Shown here in pieces: positions 1 through 13,100 of a stretch of DNA of 27,092 nucleotides (its first letter is position 1; each line of letters opens with the position of its first letter). Location of the stretch: contig CAZHCL010000006.1 of NCBI GenBank assembly GCA_964530955.1, positions 1-27,092 on the forward strand, read 5' to 3'. Position numbers and translations under genes: made by a program. The notes under the pieces are model-generated. The model had not been told where the DNA came from. It saw only the letters and a list, made by a program, of their open reading frames with translations, and ran no database searches. This DNA comes from Candidatus Woesearchaeota archaeon. Its GTDB lineage: Archaea; Nanobdellota; Nanobdellia; Pacearchaeales; GW2011-AR1.

Positions 1-143
1 AAGAGGATGTCTGAAAGATCAAACGTCCTCCCCTGGGAAAAAGAGGTGTACTAAATAATTGAGGTAATAAGGATATATAAACTTTTTGATTCCTTGAATA
101 GGTGCTGAAAGTTGTTGCGTACAGCAAATAATTTGTCGTCGAT

Positions 144-240
144 AAACAGCTGTTTGGGGTGTTTACTGGTAGACAAACAGGTGTTTAAAGTAGTAGATGA
201 AGGTGTTTGTCTTATCAAAAAGGTGTTTGTTGGGGTGTTT
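144..240. repeat. Cluster of AAACAG[G/C]TGTTT / GGTGTTT motifs in the intergenic region
   Basis: Perfect palindrome AAACAGCTGTTT at 144-155; AAACAGGTGTTT at 175-186; GGTGTTT cores start at 158, 180, 202, 222 and 234. Confidence 0.85.
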
Positions 241-296
241 AATGGTGCTAATCTCTTATGTTGTGATTTGCCTTTATAGCCCTTAAAACAGCAATA

Positions 297-304
297 TTTA
301 AATA
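297..304 (+). promoter_or_regulatory. Archaeal TATA box for 327..980 (probably leaderless)
   Basis: TTTAAATA ending 23 nt before the ATG at 327. Confidence 0.6.
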
Positions 305-326
305 CTATAAGAGTTGTAATGTTTTT

Positions 327-980
327 ATGTTTGAATGGTTATTCAAAAAGAAGGAAAAAAAGCTTGAGCAAAAAACTCAAGAAGGGTTTAATTCTGTAAA
401 AAAAGATATAGATGCAGTTGGAAAGTGGATTAAGTACTTGGATTCGAGAGACAAACAGGTGTTTGATCTTCTAAATGAGTTAAAAGGAGATTTAGCGTCG
501 ATACATGATGAGCTTGATGGACTTAGTGAGGCTGTGGGAATAGTCGGAGGGGGAAGAAAAAACAAACAGGTGTTTGAAAAAACAGGTGTTTTGGACAAAC
601 AAACAGCTGTAGAAGGTGTTGAAGAACCTGTTCAAACAGCTGTTCAAACAGCCAATTTTTATGATATTTTGAAGAGTTTTAGCGGAAATGAAAGATTGCT
701 TATTTTTACCCTTATGAACAGCGAAATGAAGCTAAGTTATGAGGATCTGGCCCTTCTTTTGGGAAAAGAGAAGTCTACCGTTAGGGGACAGATAAATACT
801 ATAAAACAGAAAAGTGAAGGTATTATTATGGAGATAAGTGAGAAAAATGGGAAAAAGAGAGTCTTTGTACCCTCTGAAATAAGAGAAAAACTGCTCAAAT
901 ACGCAAAAGTGAGAGTTGGGAATAACCGAAAAGTTCGTGTTAAACGTCAAAATACTGAAAATCCTGAGGAAAAGGTCTGA
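327..980 (+). CDS. Hypothetical protein: N-terminal coiled coil, low-complexity linker, C-terminal winged-helix DNA-binding domain
   Basis: 217-aa ORF. The C-terminal segment SGNERLLIFTLMNSEMKLSYEDLALLLGKEKSTVRGQINTIKQK...EKNGKKRVFV has a wHTH pattern. The N-terminus has heptad character. Confidence 0.7.
   Translation: MFEWLFKKKEKKLEQKTQEGFNSVKKDIDAVGKWIKYLDSRDKQVFDLLNELKGDLASIHDELDGLSEAVGIVGGGRKNKQVFEKTGVLDKQTAVEGVEEPVQTAVQTANFYDILKSFSGNERLLIFTLMNSEMKLSYEDLALLLGKEKSTVRGQINTIKQKSEGIIMEISEKNGKKRVFVPSEIREKLLKYAKVRVGNNRKVRVKRQNTENPEEKV
449..652. repeat. Intragenic copies of the AAACAG[G/C]TGTT motif
   Basis: AGACAAACAGGTGTTT at 449-464 is identical to 171-186. AAACAGGTGTTT at 564-575 and 580-591; AAACAGCTGT at 601-610; AAACAGCTGTT at 634-644; AAACAGC at 646-652. 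Confidence 0.85.
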
Positions 981-1035
981 AAAACAGAAAAGTGAGAGTT
1001 AGCTCTTGGGAAAAAAGGGAGATAAAAATAAAAAA

Positions 1036-1158
1036 ATGGAAATAACAGAGAAAGAGAGGGAAAAATTGAGAGAGTTGCAAATTGAAAGCTTAAAAGAGAT
1101 AGTTGTAAAAGCTAACAAAATTTCGAGTTCAGGTAAAAGTGAGGAAAAATTGGGATAA
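1036..1158 (+). CDS. Possible 40-aa small protein (MEITEKEREKLRELQIESLKEIVVKANKISSSGKSEEKLG)
   Basis: ATG 1036 to TAA 1156-1158, read by hand (below the ORF-track cutoff). GGGAG lies upstream; charged helical composition. Confidence 0.3.
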   Translation: MEITEKEREKLRELQIESLKEIVVKANKISSSGKSEEKLG

Positions 1159-1303
1159 ATATCAATTTTTCTGAGTTGCTCTGGAAAAATAAGTTCAATA
1201 GAGCTTAAAAACCTCAAAAAAGAGAGTTTTAAGGCTTTATGGAAAGATGAGAGAAAAGGTGGAAAAGAGGTAGATTTATCTAGATAATCGTTTAAACGGC
1301 TAA

Positions 1304-2011
1304 CTAGATTTCTCTGAGCTGTATGATCGTCTGTAAAGAAGCTAATTGCTTGAACTCGGAAGGTATTGAAAGGAAGATTTTCTTGTTGTTTTCCTTGTTT
1401 TTCTGAATTGGAACTCCTTTTTTAATTATCTTTTGGATATAATCTCTTATTGAAGACTCTGAAAGCGAAAGTTTCTTTGCTATAAGAGGATAATCGACGA
1501 CAAAGCCTTCCTCCTGGAGCTGATAAAGTGTTGAAAAAACAAGCATTTCTTGATTGGTAAGTTTCTTAAATTTGCTTCTGATATCTTTCTTAATCGTGTC
1601 GAGAGATTTTAGAATCTCTGAGACTTGCTCAATCTGATCAATTCGGTCAGTTCTATTGGAAATGGGGGTGTGTTGGTTTGTTTGTTGGTTTGTTGGTTTG
1701 TTTGTTGGAACCCCATCATTTCCTATGGAAATACGATAAATATGAGGTTTTAAGGCTTTATAGGGCCAATTACCTGTTGGATTGTTGGATTGTTCGTCCT
1801 CATTTGTGTTTATTTCATGAATATCTGTTGGATTACTCTCAGACTGCTGTTTGTTGGTTTGTTTGTTTGTTTGTTGGGTAGATAGAACACTATTTATGGT
1901 TCGTTTAATTTCCTGCATTTCTGAAGAGATTGATAACATGCTGTCTTTTAATGATTCAATGTCTTGCTTTGCCCTAGAAAATGCCTCTTTTATAGGATCT
2001 TTTTTGTCCAT
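1304..2011 (-). CDS. Hypothetical protein: N-terminal coiled coil, Q/T/N-rich repeat linker, C-terminal winged-helix domain
   Basis: 235-aa ORF. wHTH-like LTNQEMLVFSTLYQLQEEGFVVDYPLIAKKLSLSESSIRDYIQKIIKKGVPIQKNKENNKKIFL; linker with QTNKQTNKQ / TNKPTNQQTNQ. Confidence 0.75.
   Translation of the reverse strand: MDKKDPIKEAFSRAKQDIESLKDSMLSISSEMQEIKRTINSVLSTQQTNKQTNKQQSESNPTDIHEINTNEDEQSNNPTGNWPYKALKPHIYRISIGNDGVPTNKPTNQQTNQHTPISNRTDRIDQIEQVSEILKSLDTIKKDIRSKFKKLTNQEMLVFSTLYQLQEEGFVVDYPLIAKKLSLSESSIRDYIQKIIKKGVPIQKNKENNKKIFLSIPSEFKQLASLQTIIQLREI
1671..1877. repeat. Intragenic TGTTGG / TGTT short-repeat tracts
   Basis: TGTTGG starts at 1671, 1683, 1691, 1703, 1775, 1783, 1826, 1852 and 1872, interspersed with TTTG tetramers. 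Confidence 0.8.
1711..1731 (-). promoter_or_regulatory. ORB-like (Orc1/Cdc6 origin recognition box) element inside a coding sequence
   Basis: Minus strand TTTCCATAGGAAATGATGGGG matches the oriC box at 6617-6637 (TTTCCATGGGAAACCATGGGG) at 18/21 positions. Confidence 0.6.
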
Positions 2012-2014
2012 TTA

Positions 2015-2347
2015 TTATTCTTGCTCGTCCAGATTATAAATATTGTTATGCTGAAGTTGATTTTTCATTTTCTCAGAGGATTGGGCTTTTGAGTATACTT
2101 CGAAAACTTGATTTGAAAGACGCCAACGTATTCTTTTTGAGTAGTCTTTGCCTTCCTTGTTCTTACTTATTGAAAGAACTAGCTTTTTCTTTTCTAATTC
2201 GAGAAGAAGTAACTTGGTGAATTCTTCATCTCTTGCAATTTCAGCCCCGATCTCTGATGTGAACTTAGATTCGGGAGAAATAGAGAAGAGATAGTGAAGT
2301 ATTTGTTCTGATATTTTATCTTTTTTCTTGTCGGATATTGTGGGCAT
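2015..2347 (-). CDS. Small winged-helix-like DNA-binding protein
   Basis: 110 aa. ISEQILHYLFSISPESKFTSEIGAEIARDEEFTKLLLLELEKKKLV...RIRWRLS has a wHTH pattern. Stop is 3 nt before the start of 1304..2011, so probably one operon. Minus-strand TTTAAATA at 2369-2376. Confidence 0.65.
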   Translation of the reverse strand: MPTISDKKKDKISEQILHYLFSISPESKFTSEIGAEIARDEEFTKLLLLELEKKKLVLSISKNKEGKDYSKRIRWRLSNQVFEVYSKAQSSEKMKNQLQHNNIYNLDEQE

Positions 2348-2449
2348 GGTAGAATATACACTGAGAGTTATTTAAAGATAATGGAAAAAGTTAAATACTT
2401 GTGATAGGATAATTTAGGACTTGTCTTTTATTCAAGATTAATAGTCAAA

Positions 2450-5032
2450 ATGGCAGAAATAAAATATATTGAACCGCACAAAACAGAAGAAGTAGCGGAA
2501 ACTCTGAACCCTTTGGTTAAAGAGTGGTTCTTTTCTAAGTTTAAGGACTTTAGTCTCACTCAGCTTTATGGTGTTAAGAATATTAATGACAGGAAGAACA
2601 TACTTGTAAGTGCGCCTACTGGGGGAACTAAGACTCTTACTGCCTTTTTAGGCATTCTTAACTATGTTGTTGGGCTTGCTTTGAAAAATGAACTTGAAGA
2701 TAAGATGTACGCCGTATATACTTCTCCTTTGAAAGCACTAAGTAATGATATTTTTGTGAATTTGATAAATCCTCTGGAGGAAATGAGTGCTCTTGCTGAA
2801 AAAAAAGGACTAAAAATGCAGAATATAAGGGTTGCTCTTAGGACTGGGGACACGACTGCCTCCGAGAGAGCTAAACAGGCAAGGAAAATACCTCATATTT
2901 ATGTTACAACCCCTGAATCTCTTGCAATTGTTCTGACTACTGAGAAGTTTGTTGAGGGAATTAGGGCTCTTGAGTTCATAATTGTGGATGAAATTCATGC
3001 TTTGACTAATAAAAGAGGAGTTTATCTCTCCCTCACTCTTGAAAGGCTATGTAATTATAGTGTAATTGAACCTGTTCGTATAGGATTGAGTGCTACAATC
3101 TCTCCTCTGGAGGAAATTGCCAAGTTTCTTGTGGGAAAAGATAGAGATTGTTTGATTGCGAGTGTTAAATTAAGTAAAAAGATAGAGATTGGACTTGATT
3201 TTCCTGGTGAAAGCATACTTGAAACTGAAAATGCGGAGAATCAAAAGAAGCTTTATCATCTTTTGGATGAATTAATACAGAAAAATAGGACTACACTTAT
3301 ATTTACCAATACTAGAGCGGCTACTGAGAGGATAATTCATTACCTTGATATGCATTTCCCGGGAAAATATGAGGGTTTAATTGGGGCGCATCATAGTTCG
3401 ATGTCCAAGGAAAAGAGATTTGAGATTGAAGATAAGCTTCGAAAGGGAGAACTGAAGGTTGTTGTTTCTTCGACCTCTCTTGAACTAGGAATAGATATTG
3501 GAAGCATAGACCTAGTTATTATGTTAAGAAGCCCAAAGTCGGTTTCAAGGGCATTACAGAGAATAGGAAGGGCAGGACACAAGCTACATGACAACCCTAG
3601 AGGGGAATTCATTGTTCTTGATAGAGATGATCTTGTTGAATGTGGAATATTGATGAAAGAAATGATAGAAGGTAAGATAGACAGAGCGGAAATACCTAAA
3701 AATTGTCTAGATGTTTTGGCTCAGCAGATATTTGGAATGGCTATCTCAAAGATATGGAACATTGATGAGATGCTTTCGACTATTAGAAAGAGTTATTGCT
3801 ATGAAAATCTGAAAGAAGAAGATTTTCTGGATATAATCAGTTATCTCGCAGGGGAATATGCCCTTGAACATAGAAATGTCTATGCTAAGATATGGTATGA
3901 TGCTGGAACGAAGCAGATAGGCAAAAGAGGGAAGATGGCTCGTGTGATTTATATGACTAATATAGGAACTATCGCTGAAGAAGGATTTATCAGTGTAGTA
4001 ATACAGAGTCCTGCTGAAAAAAGAGGAGAGATAATTGGAAAGATAGATGAAAGTTTTCTTGAAAGAATGAAGAGGGATGATGTTTTTGTCCTGGGGGGAG
4101 CAAAATATCAATTCTTATTTGCAAGAGGGATGAAAGCATATGTCCGGGCAGGGGTTACAAGAAATCCTACCATTCCTTCCTGGTTTTCAGAGCAACTGCC
4201 ATTAAGCATAGATGTCGCATTGGAAATAGGGAGGTTCAGAAAGCTTGTTAAAGAAAGGCTGAAGAAAAAAGAAGATGCAATATCATTCATTGAAGAGTAT
4301 ATCCATTGCAAAAAACATGTTGCTGAAGAAATATATGAATACTTCTATGAACAGGAAAAATTTGCGGAAGTTCCAGATTCAAACACAATAGTTGTTGAAA
4401 AATTCAAAGAAGATAGGGAATATATTATGTTTCATTCTCTTTATGGAAGAAGAGTTAATGATTCACTTGCCAGAGCGTATGCTTTTGCCGCTGCACGCCT
4501 AAAATATAGGGATGTTGAAATAGGAGTTAATGATAATGGATTCTTCATTTCAGGTACGGGCATAGATGAAAATAAAATTATTGATTTTGTGACGAGTAAA
4601 AATCTTGAAGAGATACTTAGAGAAGCTATTGAAAGAACTGAAGTTCTTGCAAGAAGGTTTAGACATTGTGCTGCTCGTTCTCTTATGATTCTTAGGAATT
4701 ACAAGGGAAGGGAGAAGAGTGTTGGAAAACAGCATGTGCACTCAGGATTCCTTCTTTTAGCTGTGAAAAAAATAAGTAATGAATTTCCCATACTTAGAGA
4801 AGCAAGAAGAGAGGTATTTGAGGATCTTATGGATGTTAATGGTGCCAAAAATGTACTAAAACTTATTGAGAGGGGTGAAGTTAAAATAAAGAAGATAAGA
4901 ACTCCTTTCGTCTCTCCGTTTGGAATAAATCTAATGCTTGCCGGAAGGAGTGACTTGATAAAGATGGAGGATAAGGCTAACTTCTTAAGGAGAATGCATG
5001 AGCTCCATCTGAAGGCAATTAAAGCAAAATGA
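2450..5032 (+). CDS. lhr: ATP-dependent Lhr-family (archaeal Lhr-core) SF2 helicase
   Basis: 860 aa; motifs APTGGTKT, SPLKALSND, RTGDT, TTPESL, DEIH, GLSAT, HHSSMS, SLELGIDIG, QRIGRAGH, LDVLAQ. Confidence 0.9.
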   Translation: MAEIKYIEPHKTEEVAETLNPLVKEWFFSKFKDFSLTQLYGVKNINDRKNILVSAPTGGTKTLTAFLGILNYVVGLALKNELEDKMYAVYTSPLKALSNDIFVNLINPLEEMSALAEKKGLKMQNIRVALRTGDTTASERAKQARKIPHIYVTTPESLAIVLTTEKFVEGIRALEFIIVDEIHALTNKRGVYLSLTLERLCNYSVIEPVRIGLSATISPLEEIAKFLVGKDRDCLIASVKLSKKIEIGLDFPGESILETENAENQKKLYHLLDELIQKNRTTLIFTNTRAATERIIHYLDMHFPGKYEGLIGAHHSSMSKEKRFEIEDKLRKGELKVVVSSTSLELGIDIGSIDLVIMLRSPKSVSRALQRIGRAGHKLHDNPRGEFIVLDRDDLVECGILMKEMIEGKIDRAEIPKNCLDVLAQQIFGMAISKIWNIDEMLSTIRKSYCYENLKEEDFLDIISYLAGEYALEHRNVYAKIWYDAGTKQIGKRGKMARVIYMTNIGTIAEEGFISVVIQSPAEKRGEIIGKIDESFLERMKRDDVFVLGGAKYQFLFARGMKAYVRAGVTRNPTIPSWFSEQLPLSIDVALEIGRFRKLVKERLKKKEDAISFIEEYIHCKKHVAEEIYEYFYEQEKFAEVPDSNTIVVEKFKEDREYIMFHSLYGRRVNDSLARAYAFAAARLKYRDVEIGVNDNGFFISGTGIDENKIIDFVTSKNLEEILREAIERTEVLARRFRHCAARSLMILRNYKGREKSVGKQHVHSGFLLLAVKKISNEFPILREARREVFEDLMDVNGAKNVLKLIERGEVKIKKIRTPFVSPFGINLMLAGRSDLIKMEDKANFLRRMHELHLKAIKAK

Positions 5033-5763
5033 AAGTAATATCTGAAAAAAACATAAAATACCTTGGGAAATGCGTTCTTATCGAAGAAGGAAAAGAAAAA
5101 GTGCTTGCTGTGGGAGACATACATATAGGATATGGGAAACAGGGAGAAGCCTATGGCGCGATGGTAGATGAAAGTTTATACAATGAAATGATACATGACT
5201 TTGAAGAGATTTTTTCTTACACTGAGAAGATTGATAAGATAATTCTCCTGGGAGATTTGAAACATTCATTTTCGGGACTCGAAAAGGGAGAAAAGTATGA
5301 TTTGGTTAATCTTTTTGATTACCTAGAAAAAAAATGCAAGGAAATTATAGTTACCAAAGGGAATCATGACAACTATCTCCTTGAAGTTACTTCAGGAAGA
5401 GGGATAAGGGTTACTGAAAATTACATTTGGAAGGGTTACTGCTTTTTTCATGGGGATAGGGATTTACTTGCGATTCATGCGAGAGAGGTGAAATGCTGGC
5501 TCATGGGGCATATGCATCCGGCTGTAAAATTGAGAGAGGAAACTAAGATGGAGAAATATAAGTGCTTCCTTTCGGGGGAATTTGAAGGGAGAAAAGTCAT
5601 AATCCTGCCTTGCTTTGCAGATGCAGGTGAGGGAATTGATGCGAGAGAGATTGAAAAAGAGATTGCCTGGAACCTTGATCTCGGAAAATTTGATGTTTAT
5701 GTCGTGGGAGAAGGGCTTGAAGTACTTGGTTTTGGTAAACTTAACAAGATAAGAGAAAAATAG
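5029..5763 (+). CDS. Calcineurin-like metallophosphoesterase (Lhr-associated, PdeM/MPE-like nuclease)
   Basis: GDIH, GDLKH, GNHD, HGD and GHMHP metal-binding motifs; 4-nt ATGA overlap with lhr. Confidence 0.85.
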   Translation: MKVISEKNIKYLGKCVLIEEGKEKVLAVGDIHIGYGKQGEAYGAMVDESLYNEMIHDFEEIFSYTEKIDKIILLGDLKHSFSGLEKGEKYDLVNLFDYLEKKCKEIIVTKGNHDNYLLEVTSGRGIRVTENYIWKGYCFFHGDRDLLAIHAREVKCWLMGHMHPAVKLREETKMEKYKCFLSGEFEGRKVIILPCFADAGEGIDAREIEKEIAWNLDLGKFDVYVVGEGLEVLGFGKLNKIREK

Positions 5764-5772
5764 TAAATAATA

Positions 5773-6237
5773 TTACTTCTTACTGAGAACTTTGTTCAAA
5801 TCCACTCTTGGTAGAGGAAAATGAGCTGGCAAACTAAGTTCTTGCTCTAGAGTAAGAGCTTTAATGGAACATTTTGCAAGAATGAAATTCATAAGAAAGC
5901 TACTTAGATCCTGAGAAATTATCTTATTTTTCCAATTTTTTAGAATTTCCTTAGAGTTTTCTTTTTCTAGAGAAAGAATAATTAAACCTTCGAATGAAAT
6001 CTGTGCGGTGGTCTTATCCTTTTTGCTCTCGCCTTTGATCTTCTCTTTACCAGGTGCGTCTTTATAGTCAATGGAAAATTTAAAAGATACTCTGATAATT
6101 TCGGAATCTCTGAGAATCTCAATATTGTCTTTTTCTATTTCTAAAAATTCAACATTTGTATTTATACTTCCATCTGCTTTGGAGTCTTTATCTCTTTCTG
6201 CAGTAATTTTAGTAAAATTAAAACCTAGAACTTTCAT
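5773..6237 (-). CDS. Conserved-type archaeal hypothetical protein, possibly SecB-like fold
   Basis: 154 aa with alternating beta strands (KVLGFNFTKITAER, VSFKFSIDY, ISFEGLII) followed by helices. The fold is my inference. Lies 10 nt downstream of the PRC-barrel gene. Confidence 0.5.
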   Translation of the reverse strand: MKVLGFNFTKITAERDKDSKADGSINTNVEFLEIEKDNIEILRDSEIIRVSFKFSIDYKDAPGKEKIKGESKKDKTTAQISFEGLIILSLEKENSKEILKNWKNKIISQDLSSFLMNFILAKCSIKALTLEQELSLPAHFPLPRVDLNKVLSKK

Positions 6238-6247
6238 TTTGACAGAA

Positions 6248-6508
6248 TTAGGCTAAGTCTTCTTCAGAAATAACGACAAAATCCCCTATTGCAATAATAG
6301 TATTGTAGGGAACAAGGACATCTCTTGAGGGAGAAACTTCGAGATTGAGGTTTCTTGTGTAGGGAGTAGGATCTTTGACAACAATTTGAATCAGCTCACC
6401 AGTTCTTGTCTCAAAAGTTATATCTTTAACTATTCCCAATCTTTTTCCCTCTTTTGTTACGACAAGCTTTCCAATTATTTCTTTTAATGGCTTTTTATCA
6501 AGAGTCAT
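6248..6508 (-). CDS. PRC-barrel domain protein (possibly CdpB-like)
   Basis: 86 aa; IIGKLVVTKEGKRLGIVKDITFETRTGEL...VPYNTIIAIGDFVVI is the PRC-barrel signature. Minus-strand TTTAAATA at 6530-6537. Confidence 0.85.
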   Translation of the reverse strand: MTLDKKPLKEIIGKLVVTKEGKRLGIVKDITFETRTGELIQIVVKDPTPYTRNLNLEVSPSRDVLVPYNTIIAIGDFVVISEEDLA

Positions 6509-6609
6509 AGTTGTTTGTAATATGATTCATATTTAAACTTTTCCATAATTCATCTTGCATGTTTTAATAAACAGTAATCTATTAGAAATAACTGTGAAAC
6601 GGGATTAAT

Positions 6610-6990
6610 ACCCTGTCCCCATGGTTTCCCATGGAAAAGAGAAAAGGTTTATAAACTAATCTGGATGTTTTTACTTTTATTTTTTATTTTTAAATATATA
6701 TATTATATATTATATATTATAAGATATATATTATAGTATGGTAGTTTAAGTTCTCTTTAATTTAAAAGATATTGAAATAATTTTTTAAGTTTTCCATGAG
6801 AAGAGAAGGTCTGAGGGGAGAGAAATTTTTTAAATTATATTAATTTGTTTTTTTTGATTAAAAAATTATTTAACGGTACTTTAATTTTTATATTGAGATT
6901 AGCGTCGATAAGATCAAAAGTTCGCTATTTCACAAATCAGAACAATATTAGTTTGAATTTTATGCTTTAGCTTTCCACAGGAAATAATGT
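6610..6990. other. Candidate chromosomal replication origin (oriC)
   Basis: Non-coding gap 6509-7052 directly upstream of cdc6. AT-only run about 6690-6737. ORB-like boxes at 6617-6637 (-, with GGGG), 6791-6818 (+, TTTCCATGAGAAG...TCTGAGGGG) and 6972-6989 (+, TTTCCACAGGAAATAATG). Confidence 0.8.
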
Positions 6991-7052
6991 TTATAGCATA
7001 GATAAGTTTATAATAAGAAACGTATTAAAATAAAAATAAAAAGAGAGGGAAG

Positions 7053-8261
7053 ATGGAAAAAGTAGATAAAATAGATGCAATCTTTAATTCGTTTGTCAGT
7101 AATAACTTATTTAAAAATAAATCCGTCCTTCAATCGAATTATAACCCTCAAAGTATAACTCACAGAGATGCACAAATAGAGTCTGTTGCTTCGATTCTCG
7201 CTCCTGCGCTAAGAGGAGAAAGGATAAGTAACCTTTTTCTTTACGGAAAAACTGGAACTGGCAAAACTCTATCAATACAACATGTGGGTGAGAAGATGAA
7301 TGTTCGTCTAAAGGAGATGGGTGAGGACTATCTTCGGTTTGTTTATGTGAATTGCAAGCTAAAAAAGGTGGCTGATACGGAGTATAGAATACTTGCGGAG
7401 ATAATTAGTGAGCTTGGGGGCAAAGTGCCTTCAACTGGGCTTCCAACTGACCAGGTTTATTCAAGATTTATTGACCTTATAGACCAGAAGAAGCAGATGA
7501 TTGTTCTTGTGCTTGATGAAATTGATCAGGCAGTGAAAAAAATATCTGACAACTTCATTTATTCTCTTACTAGACTAAATACTGAACTCAAAAATGCGCA
7601 GATAAGCATAATTGGAATAAGCAACAGTCTTACTTTTATGGATAATCTTGATCCAAGAGTAAGAAGCTCGCTTGGAGAAGAAGAAATAATTTTCCCGCCT
7701 TATAATGCTCTGCAATTGCAGGATATTTTAAAGGAAAGAGCAGACAATGCATTCAAAGATCAGGTTCTCGAGGAAGGAGTCATATCAAAATGTGCTGCGT
7801 ATGCTGCGAGAGAGCATGGAGATGCGAGGAGGGCTCTTGATCTCCTCAGGGTTGCGGGGGAAATTGCAGAAAGAGAGAATAGTAAGAACATAAAATTAGT
7901 ACATATAGATTCTGCAAACAATAAAATAGAAAGGGATAAAATGTTGGATATAATAGAAAGCGAGCCTAAACAATTTCAACTTGTGCTTCATTCAATATTT
8001 CTTCTTGAGAAGGGCAAAGAAGCTATCTTTACGGGAGAGGTTTACAATATGTACCAAGATGTATGCACCAAAACGAAAAATGAAGCCCTCACACAAAGAA
8101 GAGTTTCCGATATCCTTGCTGAATTTGATATGCTTGGATTGATTAACACTCATGTCATAAGCAAAGGAAGGCATGGACGGATGAGAGAGATAAAGCTCAT
8201 GCTTTCTCCAAATATAAGAGAAAAGGCGATAGAGATAATTGAGAAAGCAATATTCTCCTAG
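7053..8261 (+). CDS. cdc6: Orc1/Cdc6 replication initiation protein
   Basis: 402 aa; Walker A YGKTGTGKT, Walker B VLVLDEID, RVRSSL, GDARRALDLLR, C-terminal wH domain (ISKGRHGR). Upstream purine-rich GAGGG Shine-Dalgarno-like site. Confidence 0.95.
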   Translation: MEKVDKIDAIFNSFVSNNLFKNKSVLQSNYNPQSITHRDAQIESVASILAPALRGERISNLFLYGKTGTGKTLSIQHVGEKMNVRLKEMGEDYLRFVYVNCKLKKVADTEYRILAEIISELGGKVPSTGLPTDQVYSRFIDLIDQKKQMIVLVLDEIDQAVKKISDNFIYSLTRLNTELKNAQISIIGISNSLTFMDNLDPRVRSSLGEEEIIFPPYNALQLQDILKERADNAFKDQVLEEGVISKCAAYAAREHGDARRALDLLRVAGEIAERENSKNIKLVHIDSANNKIERDKMLDIIESEPKQFQLVLHSIFLLEKGKEAIFTGEVYNMYQDVCTKTKNEALTQRRVSDILAEFDMLGLINTHVISKGRHGRMREIKLMLSPNIREKAIEIIEKAIFS

Positions 8262-8273
8262 TCACACTACAAT

Positions 8274-9869
8274 ATGAACGAAGAGATATTAAAACTAATA
8301 AAACAGAAGGGAGTGCTGCTTGAGAAAGAGGTGTTCGATGTTTTTAACGAAATAAATGATGTGGAATCTGCCAGACATCTTCTTGAGACTCTCGAAAGAT
8401 TTTCTGGACAGAAGATGATTACTAAGTCTGCAATAAATAAAAATTTTAGTCTTGTCAGAAATTTAGGTAGTGCTTTACAAGGCGAAGAGAAAATTCTTGT
8501 GGAAAAGACTTTCATTAAGCTGGGTTTAAGCTTGGAGATAACAAAAGAAACTTCTATTGTTAGCAATCCTTCCATTAATGTAATTATTGAAAAGCCAAAG
8601 GTTGAAACTAGAAAGGAAGAAAGCTACAAAATCTTTTACTCTACAACTAGAAATGACAAAAAGCTTGAAGTTGCTGACTTTGTAGGGAGCTTTAGATCAA
8701 GATATCAGCAGTTGCAGAGAATATTAATGAACAGGCCAGATATGCAGAATCTTGTTTCTATAAACAAACTCGGGAGTGAAAGGAAAAATCATGTCATAAT
8801 CGGAATAGTCAGTGAGAAGAGGATTACTAAGAACAAAAATCTTATAATTAAAGTTGAAGACTTAACTGGGGAGATAAGTGTTCTTGTGAAAGCAGATAGA
8901 CCTGAAATTTATATGAAGGGAGAGGAATTGCTTCTGGATGATGTGGTTGCTATAAAAGCCTCTGGGAGTAGAGAGATGTTATTTGTTCAGGATATTTACT
9001 TTCCAGATGCATTTCTTTCTGAAAGGACTAGGTTCGATGAGGATGTTTGCATTGCTTTTCTTTCGGACATACACGCTGGAGGAGCTAAACATCTTCAGAA
9101 GAGCTTTGAAAATTTTCTTAATTGGATAAACACGGAAGATGAGATGGCAAAAAAGATAAAATATATATTTATTTCAGGGGATAATGTTGACGGAGTCGGA
9201 ATTTTCCCTGGACAGGAAGCTTTACTTAAATTGAAAAGCATGAAGGAGCAATACTCTTTACTTGCTTCCTATCTTGCTAAGATTCCTAAAAGAATAACTA
9301 TGTTTATGTGTCCGGGACAGCACGATGCAGTAAGAGTTGCTGAGCCTCAACCAATAATCGGAAGAAAATATGCTGAGCCTTTGTATAGTATAGAGAATCT
9401 TATTCTTGTGAGCAATCCGGCACTGGTTAAACTTTCTGAAAAAGAAAAAGAGTTCAAAGTAATGATGTATCATGGAGATAGTATACACACATTTATTCAT
9501 GAAATTCCTGAACTTAGGAGCATGAAGATGCATCCTGCCAAAGCAGTAAGGCATATGCTAAAGAGGAGACATCTTTTCCCAATTCATTCCGAGGCAATTT
9601 ATATCCCGGATGCTGAAAAAGATAATCTTGTTATTTCAGAAGTTCCTGATGTGCTCTGTACTGGAGAAGTTCACAGACTGGATATAGAAAATTATAATGG
9701 TGTTTTGATAATTACTGGAAGTTGCTGGCAGGGACAGACTTCTTTCGAGGAAAAGGTAGGAAATGTTCCCGATCCTTGTAAGGTCCCTATATTAAATCTT
9801 AAAACGAGAGAGCTGAAGGTTCTTGACTTTGGGAATGAAGATGAATTAAAGGAGTTGCATGTAAAATGA
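8274..9869 (+). CDS. polB: DNA polymerase D small (exonuclease) subunit DP1
   Basis: 531 aa; OB-fold (TKNKNLIIKVEDLTGEI), phosphoesterase motifs SDIH, GDNVDGVGIFPGQ, PGQHDAVRVAEPQP, YHGD, GEVH, SCWQGQTSFE; located between cdc6 and DP2. Confidence 0.93.
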   Translation: MNEEILKLIKQKGVLLEKEVFDVFNEINDVESARHLLETLERFSGQKMITKSAINKNFSLVRNLGSALQGEEKILVEKTFIKLGLSLEITKETSIVSNPSINVIIEKPKVETRKEESYKIFYSTTRNDKKLEVADFVGSFRSRYQQLQRILMNRPDMQNLVSINKLGSERKNHVIIGIVSEKRITKNKNLIIKVEDLTGEISVLVKADRPEIYMKGEELLLDDVVAIKASGSREMLFVQDIYFPDAFLSERTRFDEDVCIAFLSDIHAGGAKHLQKSFENFLNWINTEDEMAKKIKYIFISGDNVDGVGIFPGQEALLKLKSMKEQYSLLASYLAKIPKRITMFMCPGQHDAVRVAEPQPIIGRKYAEPLYSIENLILVSNPALVKLSEKEKEFKVMMYHGDSIHTFIHEIPELRSMKMHPAKAVRHMLKRRHLFPIHSEAIYIPDAEKDNLVISEVPDVLCTGEVHRLDIENYNGVLIITGSCWQGQTSFEEKVGNVPDPCKVPILNLKTRELKVLDFGNEDELKELHVK

Positions 9870-10183
9870 ATAGAGAAGTCATGACTCTTGCAGGCAGTAC
9901 TAGGTTCAAGGACCAGTTTGAGGAAGTGGATAGGATGCTTACTTTGAACGGATCAATTGTGTTATCTCTTTCGATATTCAGTAAGACAGAAGATAAGAAA
10001 TATGATCATAAAACTGAAAAAGAGCTATTTGATCTTCAACTTGATAAGATATTGATGTCTAGTGGATTATTCGTAATTGATGTTGGAGGATACATCGGAG
10101 AAAGCACAAAGAAAGAGATAGAATTTGCAGTAATGAATGGTAAATTCATTAAGTATTATTCTAAAGAGGTTGAGGGAAAATGA
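9866..10183 (+). CDS. Small nucleoside 2-deoxyribosyltransferase (NDT)/DUF4406-like fold protein
   Basis: 105 aa; LAGSTRF...LNGSIV...KILMSSGLFVIDVGGYIGESTKKEIEFAVMNGKFIKY resembles the NDT-like pattern with a conserved Glu. ATGA overlaps with both DP1 and DP2. Confidence 0.6.
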   Translation: MNREVMTLAGSTRFKDQFEEVDRMLTLNGSIVLSLSIFSKTEDKKYDHKTEKELFDLQLDKILMSSGLFVIDVGGYIGESTKKEIEFAVMNGKFIKYYSKEVEGK

Positions 10184-13100
10184 CAATCGCTCAATATTTC
10201 AAGGATATAGAGAAGGAAGTTAAGAGAGCATATTCTTTTGCAGGGGAGGCAAGAAGAAAGGGAGTTGACCCTGTTGCAGAAGTAGAAATTCCTCTCGCAA
10301 ATTCTCTCGCTGAAAGAGTAGTAGGATTAGTATCTGTTCTTTACCCACAGGTTTTGCAGACAAAGATAGTTGAAAGAATTCTTGAACTTGAGAAACAGTT
10401 TGGTTCTCTTGATCCTGCTGTTGCACTTACTATTGCTGAGGAAGTTGCAAAAGAAAAGTTTTGTAAGTTTCAGAGCCATATTGAAGCATTTGAAGCAGGA
10501 GTAAGAATAGCAATAGGATATATGACTTTAGGATATGTATCTTCACCTCTTGAAGGATTTATTCAGATTAAGGTAAAGAAAACAAAAAATGGGGAAGATT
10601 ATATTGCTCCCTATTTTTCAGGACCGATAAGGTCTGCAGGAGGAACGGAGGCGGCTTTTTCTCTGGTGGTAGTTGATTACCTAAGAGAAATGTTCGGGTA
10701 TGCAAAATATGATGCTACTGAGGATGAAGTTAAGAGAGGAGTGCAGGAATGTTATGAATATCATGAAAGAATAACTAATTTGCAATATCTTCCTTCTGAA
10801 CAGGAAATAGATTTTTTAATGAGAAACTTACCTGTACAACTTACGGGAGATCCGAGCGAGGATAAGGAGGTTTATAATTACAAGGACTTGCCGAGAATAG
10901 AAACTAATTTTATAAGAAGTGGATTTTGTTTAGTCATGGGAGAAGGAATTGCTCAGAAAGCCCCTAAAATTCTTGGTAGAGTAACTAAACTAAAACAAAA
11001 AGGGTTTAAATTAAGCGACTGGGTTTGGCTTGATGAGTTTGTAAAGTTGCAGAAAAAAATAAAAGAAGGAAAGGCAGGAGCAGGAAGCAGAACTGGAGCA
11101 ACTTACATGCAGGATCTTGTTGCAGGGAGACCGGTATTTGCACATCCTTCTGCTTCGGGAGCATTCAGGCTTAGATATGGAAGGTCAAGAAATACGGGAT
11201 ACTCAACTCTCGCGATAAGTCCTGCAACAATGGGCATAACTGATGATTTCATTGCGATTGGGACTCAGCTGAAAATAGAAAAGCCGACAAAGGGATGCAC
11301 TGTAGCTTCATGTGACAGCATAGAAGGTCCTATTGTGAAGCTGAGTGATGGAAGCGTCAAGAAAATAAAAGATTATGCTTCTGCAAAACAGATATATCCT
11401 AATGTTTCAGAAATAATTTATTTAGGAGATATACTTGTTCCTTATGGGGATTTTGCAAACAGAAATCATGCACTCGAAAAACAAGGATATATTGAACAAT
11501 ATTGGCTCGAGCAACTGAAGAGTAAGGGTGGAGAAAGCGAATTAATCCCGGGATTTGAAAAAGCAAAAGAACTTTCTAAGCAGTATTCAATACCTTTACA
11601 TCCAGAATACATTTATTATTGGAATCAGATAAATTATTCTTCTCTTATAGCTCTCATTGATTGGATTGCACATGGTTCTTTACAAAATAAATTCTTGCTG
11701 CTTCCTTACTCCAGAATTGAAAAAGAAAGATTTGCTGTTGCTAAAAGAGCACTTGAGATAATAGGATGCGAGCATCTTGTTTCTACTGAAAATGTTGTTT
11801 TGAGTGAGAAAGATAGTGCCTCTATTCTATTTAATCTGGGAATAGAATTGAAGGAAGGGATGAATGTAGATGATGAAATTGATAGGATAACTCCTAAACT
11901 TGTTGAAAAACCAGTTATTGAAGTCCTTAATTTACTTTGCCCCTACGAAATAAGAGACAAGGCAGGAACTTTCATAGGTGGAAGAATGGGGCGACCGGAA
12001 AAGGCAAAGCTTAGAAAACTTATTGGAAGTCCACACGTACTTTTTCCAGTTGGAGAGGAAGGGGGAAGATTAAGAAGTATTCAAAGCGCTCTTGAAGTTG
12101 GAAATATAAGGGCTGATTTTGCATTGTTTTATTGTAATGCCTGCAAATTAGAAAGTATTTACTCGAGATGCACTGAATGTGGAGAGTTTTGTTCAAGAAA
12201 ATATTATTGTTCCGAATGTAATTCTCTTTATGATGGTAAATGCCCCGAACATGGGATAGGTCTTGAATTCAAAGAACAGGTAATTGATACAAGAAAGTAT
12301 TTTGATTTGGCAAGAAAGTCTGTAGGACTGAGAAATGAAGACATAAATTTTGTAATTAAGGGAGTTAAGGGAACTAGCAATAGAGATCATAGCTGTGAGA
12401 ATATGGCTAAAGGAGTTTTACGAGCAAAATACAATATCAATGTTAACAAAGATGGTACAATAAGATATGATATGACTGAAATGCCCATTACCCATTTCAG
12501 ACCTGGTGAAATAGGCGCAAGTGTGGAAAAAATTAGAGCCCTTGGATATGAAAAGGATGTTAACGGAGATTTTATTGAAAGAACTGATCAGCTTATTGAA
12601 ATGCTTCCTCATGACATAATTTTACCAGCATGTCCTTCTTCTCCTGATGAAGCTGCAGATGATGTTTTCTTTAATGTTGCTAACTTTGTTGATGAGGAAC
12701 TTGAAAAAATATATGGAACGACTAAATATTTCGATATGAAGAAAAAAGAAGATTTGATAGGAGTTTATCTTGCATGTATGGCTCCTCATACATCTTCAGC
12801 AGTCGTAGGAAGAATAATTGGATTTTCAAAGATTCAGGCATTACTGGCATCTCCATACATACACGCTGCGATGAGAAGAGATTGTGATGGAGATGAGGCA
12901 GCAGTTATGCTTCTTATGGACTTGCTTATAAACTTCTCAAGAAAGTTCATTCCTTCGCACAGAGGAGGAACACAGGACGCACCTCTTGTTCTCAATATGC
13001 ATCTAAGAGCTAATGAAGTTGATGATATGATTTTTGATGTGGATGTTTCAAAATTTATTCCTCTTGCGCTTTATGAGGTTGCTGAGAGGCACGGGATGCC

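Follow-up and report, generated by a model that had tools for sequence, protein, structure and literature searches.

A conserved origin recognition box-type site within the coding sequence of a winged-helix gene near orc1/cdc6 in DPANN archaea

The locus and its candidate origin

The window analysed here covers the initial 27,092 nucleotides of contig C6, from a 761 kb genome in 26 contigs, with 35% GC, whose close protein homologues are labelled Nanoarchaeota or Pacearchaeota in the sources. All genomes compared in this work are metagenome-assembled genomes (MAGs) of uncultivated organisms. The features discussed below are the following.

1304..2011, minus strand: winged helix-turn-helix (wHTH) host gene, 235 aa, with a Pfam HTH_11 match at threshold
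1650..1668, plus strand: second, weaker ORB-like box (box 2) in inverted orientation, third-best match to the position weight matrix (PWM); TTCTATTGGAAATGGGGG
1667..1708: tetranucleotide-type repeat (TGTT/TGGT)n between the boxes, detected by TRF, encoding the linker PTNKPTNQQTNQ
1711..1731, minus strand: full origin recognition box (ORB), top PWM match of the genome; dyad TTCCAtaGGAAA, 4-nt spacer and G-string GGGG(T)
1848..1875: second (TGTT)n tract, detected by TRF, encoding the first part of the linker, QQTNKQTNKQQ
6617..6637, minus strand: oriC ORB bordering the AT-rich element on its left side, 23.4 bits, oriented like the in-gene ORB
6641..6790: candidate duplex-unwinding element of the origin next to cdc6, AT-rich (13% GC), the lowest-GC 150-nt window in 1-11000
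6972..6989, plus strand: inverted mini-ORB bordering oriC on its right side, with a dyad and no G-string
7053..8261, plus strand: orc1/cdc6 initiator gene, with Pfam Cdc6_lid, Cdc6_C and AAA domains

The product of orc1/cdc6 is presumed to be the protein that reads the boxes. Immediately to the right of the AT-rich core, a degenerate box (TTTTCCATGAGAAG...GAGGGGA, 6791-6818, plus strand) scores below 11 bits with the PWM; its dyad is of the AGAAA type, a variant also present in the cdc6-upstream ORBs of several relatives. Over the window, GC skew tracks gene orientation without changing sign at oriC, and is therefore uninformative.

The AlphaFold model of the host protein (pLDDT 78) comprises a long helix (residues 6-45), a disordered linker (46-120) and a helix followed by a MarR-like winged HTH domain (121-234). 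Foldseek searches with this model returned MarR-family matches at E values of about 1e-3, and a sequence search of the PDB with the family profile gave only coiled-coil noise. The host protein has at least 947 homologues. Upstream of the ORB-bearing gene, a small gene encoding a 110-aa wHTH-like protein without Pfam match (2015-2347, minus strand) stops 3 nt short of its start, so that both probably form an operon; the ATG of the small gene is preceded, at about 25 nt, by a TATA-like sequence, TTTAAATA. On the other side, a convergent paralogue (327-980, plus strand) encodes a coiled coil, a linker and a wHTH domain. The palindrome AAACAGSTGTTT occurs upstream of and inside the paralogue ORF (140-660), with 13 matches at one mismatch or less versus 0.5 expected. 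GGTGTTT half-sites are also found in this region, and resemble the TGTT-type linker repeat of the ORB-bearing gene.

The in-gene box is rare and conserved as DNA

The minus strand at 1711-1731 reads TTTCCATAGGAAATGATGGGG. The initial annotation had noticed the likeness of this stretch to the oriC boxes, and both identities hold: 18/21 with 6617-6637 (minus strand) and 16/18 with 6972-6989 (plus strand). The peptide that it had read there is also correct, since translation gives ISIGNDGV, residues 94-101 of the 235-aa product. Published consensus sequences for the ORB are CTTCCAGTGGAAACGAAAGGGGT for Archaea and GTTCCAGTGGAAATGG-AGGGGTA for Methanomassiliicoccales (PMC4153887 Table 2). The 1711-1731 box agrees with the published consensus in its dyad (TTCCA-n2-GGAAA), its spacing and its G-string, GGGG(T), which begins 4-5 nt 3' of the dyad. 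The base after the G-string is mostly T across the phylum sample, as seen in 25-mers.

The strict pattern TCCAnnGGAAAYnnnGGGG has exactly two matches on both strands of the 761 kb genome, one upstream of orc1/cdc6 and the other at 1711-1729 within the host gene. They are 4.9 kb apart, and the host gene is 5 kb from the replication origin. Allowing one mismatch gave 0 genome matches and allowing two gave 7, and the reversed pattern, used as a control, was absent from 41 genomes and from 301 genomes. Sites of the genome were also ranked with a PWM trained on 100 distinct ORBs from relatives, largely in-gene boxes. The best matches are 1732 (minus strand, 37.6 bits), 6638 (minus strand, 23.4 bits) and box 2 at 1649 (plus strand, 19.5 bits), with the next at 12.9 bits; this ranking is partly circular for the first two sites, as is the description of the in-gene box as the strongest ORB, and box 2 is outside the training set. 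A background of equally good matches, which the initial annotation had named as an argument against a genuine site, was thus looked for over the whole genome, and box-like matches are not common. The box is rare in the genome, it is clustered with orc1/cdc6, and by these measures its sequence is far from chance.

Two weaker matches were noted during the scans. The fourth-best PWM match of the genome lies on a 1.6-kb contig (G000:C26:125, AGTTCCATGAGAAATGATAGGGTAT, 12.9 bits) and might come from a strain variant, or be part of a related gene. An 11-bit match at 4213-4237 (plus strand) lies within the Lhr helicase gene (2450-5032), where it encodes VALEIGRF; it occurs at the same place in two relatives with 14-20 bits (L094, L097) and probably reflects a conserved peptide.

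Codon usage was examined in 30 orthologues, collected by protein similarity alone from the same genus to the same order (31-67% identity), by threading their codons onto the protein alignment. The codons of the box are nearly frozen: Ser95 is TCC in 30/30, Gly97 GGA in 27/27, Asn98 AAT in 28/30 and Gly100 GGG in 29/29, and Val101 is GTT in 30/30, Pro102 CCA in 26/26 and Thr103 ACA in 21/21. Invariant residues elsewhere in the gene use five (S187), six (R189), six (L183), four (G199) and four (P201) codons. In the box, codon entropy is 0.05 bits, versus 1.27 bits for 60 conserved columns outside it (Mann-Whitney p=1.4e-5, the relatives not being independent samples). Two of the frozen codons are rare in the genome, TCC accounting for 6.9% of Ser and GGG for 9.4% of Gly codons. 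Synonymous variation, which the initial annotation had proposed to examine, is therefore suppressed at the box, and codons do not vary freely under a kept peptide. In a second set of 80 named MAG loci, retrieved with two C-terminal peptide patterns and partially overlapping with the 30 orthologues, the strict box is present in 72, the AGAAA variant in 2 and a single-base change in 6, three of the latter being the synonymous change GGG to GGA. The codon constraint is strong, not absolute.

The box can also be kept at its place in another reading frame, as in L046 (G145:C10:9721-9739, VPQETRGS) and L083 (G103:C24:5072-5090, VPQEIKGS). Among the orthologues this is confined to G145 and G103; the gene of G275, from the same genus as G103, reads STGNKGV. 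Three same-genus orthologues carry a Gly to Arg change (GGA to AGA) that produces TCCAnnAGAAA. These seemingly "broken" boxes are not losses, as the same variant is found in cdc6-upstream ORBs. A change of Asn to Ser is tolerated as well where the DNA remains ORB-like. The box peptide falls in the part of the AlphaFold prediction that is of low confidence and unstructured. Frozen codons, boxes in another frame, a second box in either orientation (see below) and the disordered linker all indicate that selection acts on double-stranded DNA, the site being conserved regardless of what it encodes. The peptide S[IT]GN[DE]GV accordingly appears as a by-product of the DNA site, as had been proposed: rare codons are fixed, the frame can change, and Gly to Arg variants occur in a disordered linker. 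Rarity of the strict pattern in the genome, match to the consensus and codon freezing together strongly support the 1711-1731 box, predicted at first from a single sequence, as a real DNA site of the ORB type.

Second box, distribution and polarity

The initial annotation had also described a weaker, opposite box at 1650-1668 and a repeat tract bracketed by the two boxes. The sequence confirms both. The plus strand at 1650-1668 reads GTTCTATTGGAAATGGGGG, and its coding strand is translated as TPISNRT. It is one of only three matches to a relaxed pattern in the genome, besides its third place in the PWM ranking. Box 2 is about 45 bp from the 1711-1731 box, and the G-strings of both face inward. 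In relatives, the same offset is occupied by a direct half-box (L005/6/7/9/11) or by an inverted box (L027, L029); when direct, the second box encodes GNEGV, and when inverted (query genome, L027 and L029) another peptide. This independence from the strand implies that double-stranded DNA is recognised, not RNA. Most orthologues have a single box, or two in direct orientation. A near-copy of box 2 is present upstream of cdc6 in G017 (L105 at 2864). The unit of the repeat varies by lineage in relatives, with (ACAG)n, (AATC)n, (CATT)n and (ACAA)n. Phase variation by tetranucleotide slippage was rejected: frames are open in 30/30 orthologues, repeats are short (3-9 units), and 73/74 boxes found are contained in frame-0 ORFs of 150 aa or more.

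The strict pattern was found in 34/41 relatives, mostly once per genome, that copy being located inside the orthologue of the host gene. In a phylum sample of 301 genomes, 198 harbour 1-4 strict ORBs (phylum tallies include G283 and G284, flagged unpublished, on which no particular statement depends). The family profile recovered about 66 full-length orthologues, about 53 of them with a strict ORB by coordinates; the strict box was not found in about 11 of the about 66. In other families, ORBs are intergenic, beside cdc6 or elsewhere. In family f34 (L068, L069 and L074), an intergenic ORB abuts, or lies up to about 115 nt upstream of, the start of a short gene (150-190 aa) that is weakly related to the host family, and points away from it.

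Wherever the two genes share a contig, the wHTH gene is located 1.5-16 kb from orc1/cdc6 and transcribed away from it, so that its box always has the G-string end directed away from oriC. This polarity is also that of the left-flank oriC ORB. We compared the in-gene box with the cdc6-upstream ORBs in 21 loci. The latter follow the canonical layout, being weaker and inverted (13-31 bits), and flank the lowest-GC window in 19/21. The in-gene ORB is the strongest PWM match in 21/21 loci, with 34-41 bits in 19 and 27-31 bits in the two loci with the AGAAA variant.

A probable accessory initiator site and its alternatives

We consider it quite probable, from sequence comparison, that the 21-bp box at 1711-1731 is a conserved accessory site of the Orc1/Cdc6 type, located outside the unwinding origin. 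According to this model, the box is written into the disordered-linker codons of a conserved MarR-like wHTH protein and would be kept there by purifying selection. The unwinding origin would be the AT-rich region just upstream of orc1/cdc6, with weaker inverted ORBs on its flanks, and the in-gene box an origin-proximal accessory initiator site of high affinity and fixed polarity, its G-string end away from oriC. We infer that one Orc1/Cdc6 monomer binds the box and, in the query genome, that a second monomer could occupy box 2, about 45 bp off. The initiator would thereby stay close to the origin and within the wHTH gene, and its occupancy could then be coupled to expression of this gene, through a block to, or a modulation of, the transcribing polymerase, as in the roadblock put forward by the initial annotation; alternatively, the coupling might concern origin activity, via the local initiator pool or architecture. 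As a further option, the initiator and the wHTH protein may act side by side. The strict tie of the site to one gene family suggests a coupling with the host gene, and hints that the product of this gene might itself be involved, a point on which a pure initiator-site model is silent.

A rival reading sees the box as an operator bound by the wHTH protein that the gene itself encodes, or by its paralogue, a MarR-like dimer sitting on the TTCC-n3-GGAA palindrome for autoregulation. The site follows the host gene family across a class, the protein has a MarR-like wHTH domain with a dimerising helix, lineage-specific linker repeats recur in the upstream region of the gene, suggesting self-binding sites there, and WhiP provides an example of a protein that binds repeats inside its own ORF (PMC3607249). 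However, the box stays the same between lineages that share only 25-35% identity in their wHTH domains, whereas the adjoining repeats change unit; it has an asymmetric G-string at the spacing typical of ORBs, and the same type of box lies upstream of orc1/cdc6 in the query and in other genomes. We therefore regard an operator as unlikely. Still less likely is a second, satellite replication origin firing inside the gene, a suggestion of the initial annotation that we disfavour. Two opposed ORB-like boxes about 45 bp apart, one of them the strongest ORB match of the query genome, would fit such an origin. Yet a core origin has an AT-rich unwinding element between inverted ORBs whose G-strings point outward, as at oriC; at the gene the spacer is the TGTT/TGGT repeat, G-strings point inward, and most orthologues have one box or two direct ones. 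The lowest-GC window, moreover, lies just upstream of cdc6 in 19/21 loci and at the wHTH gene in 0. A high-capacity titration locus analogous to datA, likewise proposed earlier, does not agree with the one or two boxes per locus observed, many being expected.

Conservation at the RNA level, as an mRNA hairpin or regulatory element, seems very improbable. The dyad can form a short hairpin and the two inverted boxes can pair in the query genome (MFE -15 kcal/mol), but the fold of 1640-1760 (minus strand) is no better than that of shuffled sequences (z = -1.63, 12/200 shuffles as good) and is impossible in relatives where the second box is direct or absent. The orientation of the second box varies, identical boxes are found between genes elsewhere, and no Rfam family matched in the 1-9000 region searched. 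As for a chance resemblance, or a functional peptide with ordinary codon bias, S-x-G-N-x-G-V is nearly invariant in the family. Against this stand the fixed rare codons, the box kept in another frame with a different peptide, the Gly to Arg and Asn to Ser changes tolerated where the DNA is ORB-like, the predicted disorder of the region and the near-uniqueness of the strict box (two strict matches in the query genome), and we give this reading almost no credit.

Within the accessory-site model, the ORB and the adjoining short repeats may form a composite module, in which Orc1/Cdc6 would occupy the box and the wHTH protein of the respective lineage the repeats. This is a tentative proposal, which we hold to be possible rather than probable. 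Repeat units that follow the box in the different lineages, (AATC)n, (CATT)n, (CACT)n, (CAAA)n and GGTTATTCACTT, each recur in the upstream region of the gene. In L035, L038, L040, L042-L044, L049 and L085, the intergenic stretch immediately before the gene has 1-3 copies of the linker repeat unit, placed after the preceding stop codon and ahead of the TATA-like box. In one family the whole module is duplicated: in L083 (G103:C24) and L084 (G275:C4), a second full ORB with the same repeats is located about 120 nt upstream of the wHTH start, and this ORB runs over the stop codon with which the preceding gene ends (..FHGK*). In the query genome, the linker repeat unit was not found at oriC or at the operon promoter (2348-2449), and a single 9-mer copy lies in the upstream region of the paralogue (about 225-233). 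The recurrence of lineage-specific repeats upstream of the gene thus lends some support to an action side by side, weakly so in the query genome.

The closest precedent comes from Pyrococcus and Thermococcus, where a cluster of ORB3 and mini-ORBs lies inside dp1, the gene for the small subunit of PolD (Matsunaga et al. 2007, PMC1904270). For the Pyrococcus dp1 cluster, ChIP and EMSA experiments demonstrated binding of Cdc6/Orc1 both in vivo and in vitro (PMC1904270). Both systems have initiator boxes in a coding gene, a few kb from oriC and orc1/cdc6, with conservation over an order. They differ in that the host is here the gene of a wHTH regulator, located on the other side of cdc6, and in that a single full-consensus ORB, with an optional second box, replaces the cluster. 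Moreover, the site studied here belongs to a disordered linker, and its conservation extends over a DPANN clade of class level. No ORB match of 11 bits or more was found in the 7000-11000 region, which includes dp1 (8274-9869), so that a dp1 cluster of the Thermococcales type is not seen in the query genome. The canonical oriC ORBs of Sulfolobus oriC1, Aeropyrum and Methanomassiliicoccales (PMC4153887) have the same dyad (TTCCA-nn-GGAAA), G-string (GGGG(T)) and spacing, and, like the in-gene box, are rare in the genome and linked to orc1/cdc6; unlike them, the in-gene box flanks no unwinding element, lies in coding DNA and is 1.5-16 kb away from the origin.

At Sulfolobus oriC3, WhiP sites are located inside the whiP ORF (Samson et al. 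2013, PMC3607249), so that there too an origin-adjacent winged-helix gene carries conserved sites in its own ORF. The WhiP repeats are AT-rich and bound by WhiP itself, a relative of Cdt1, whereas the gene studied here combines an ORB with a single MarR-like wHTH. WhiP and Cdt1 have tandem winged helices; the host protein has a single C-terminal one with MarR-family proteins as top Foldseek matches, and no WhiP or Cdt1 Pfam match was detected in it. Conserved chromosome-maintenance sites in or near origin-close genes also exist in Bacteria, with parS in spo0J/parB and with oriC-proximal DnaA-box clusters and datA. The bacterial proteins are unrelated, and datA and the DnaA-box clusters hold many boxes versus one or two here. 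A search of the literature for intragenic ORBs in DPANN, Nanoarchaeota, Woesearchaeota and Pacearchaeota returned nothing relevant, a preprint on complete Nanobdellota genomes makes no mention of ORBs, and we found no paper describing an in-gene ORB in DPANN.

To our knowledge, hardly any work has addressed the control of replication in DPANN archaea. For most members of a large clade, the initiator box that is best conserved in the genome, and is often the only strict one, would lie inside a gene rather than at the origin, and the wHTH protein becomes a candidate replication-linked DNA-binding protein. If the composite module is real, this protein would be an undescribed DPANN-wide initiator partner or regulator, a functional analogue of WhiP with docking sites in its own linker codons, and replication initiation would be coupled to it. 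The gene is also a clear natural example of dual-coding DNA, in that a "conserved" peptide is imposed by a site for protein binding, which is a warning for motif-based protein annotation. Finally, the in-gene box would extend the observation made on dp1 in Thermococcales to a distant lineage, and suggests that extra-origin ORBs within genes may be a general feature of Archaea.
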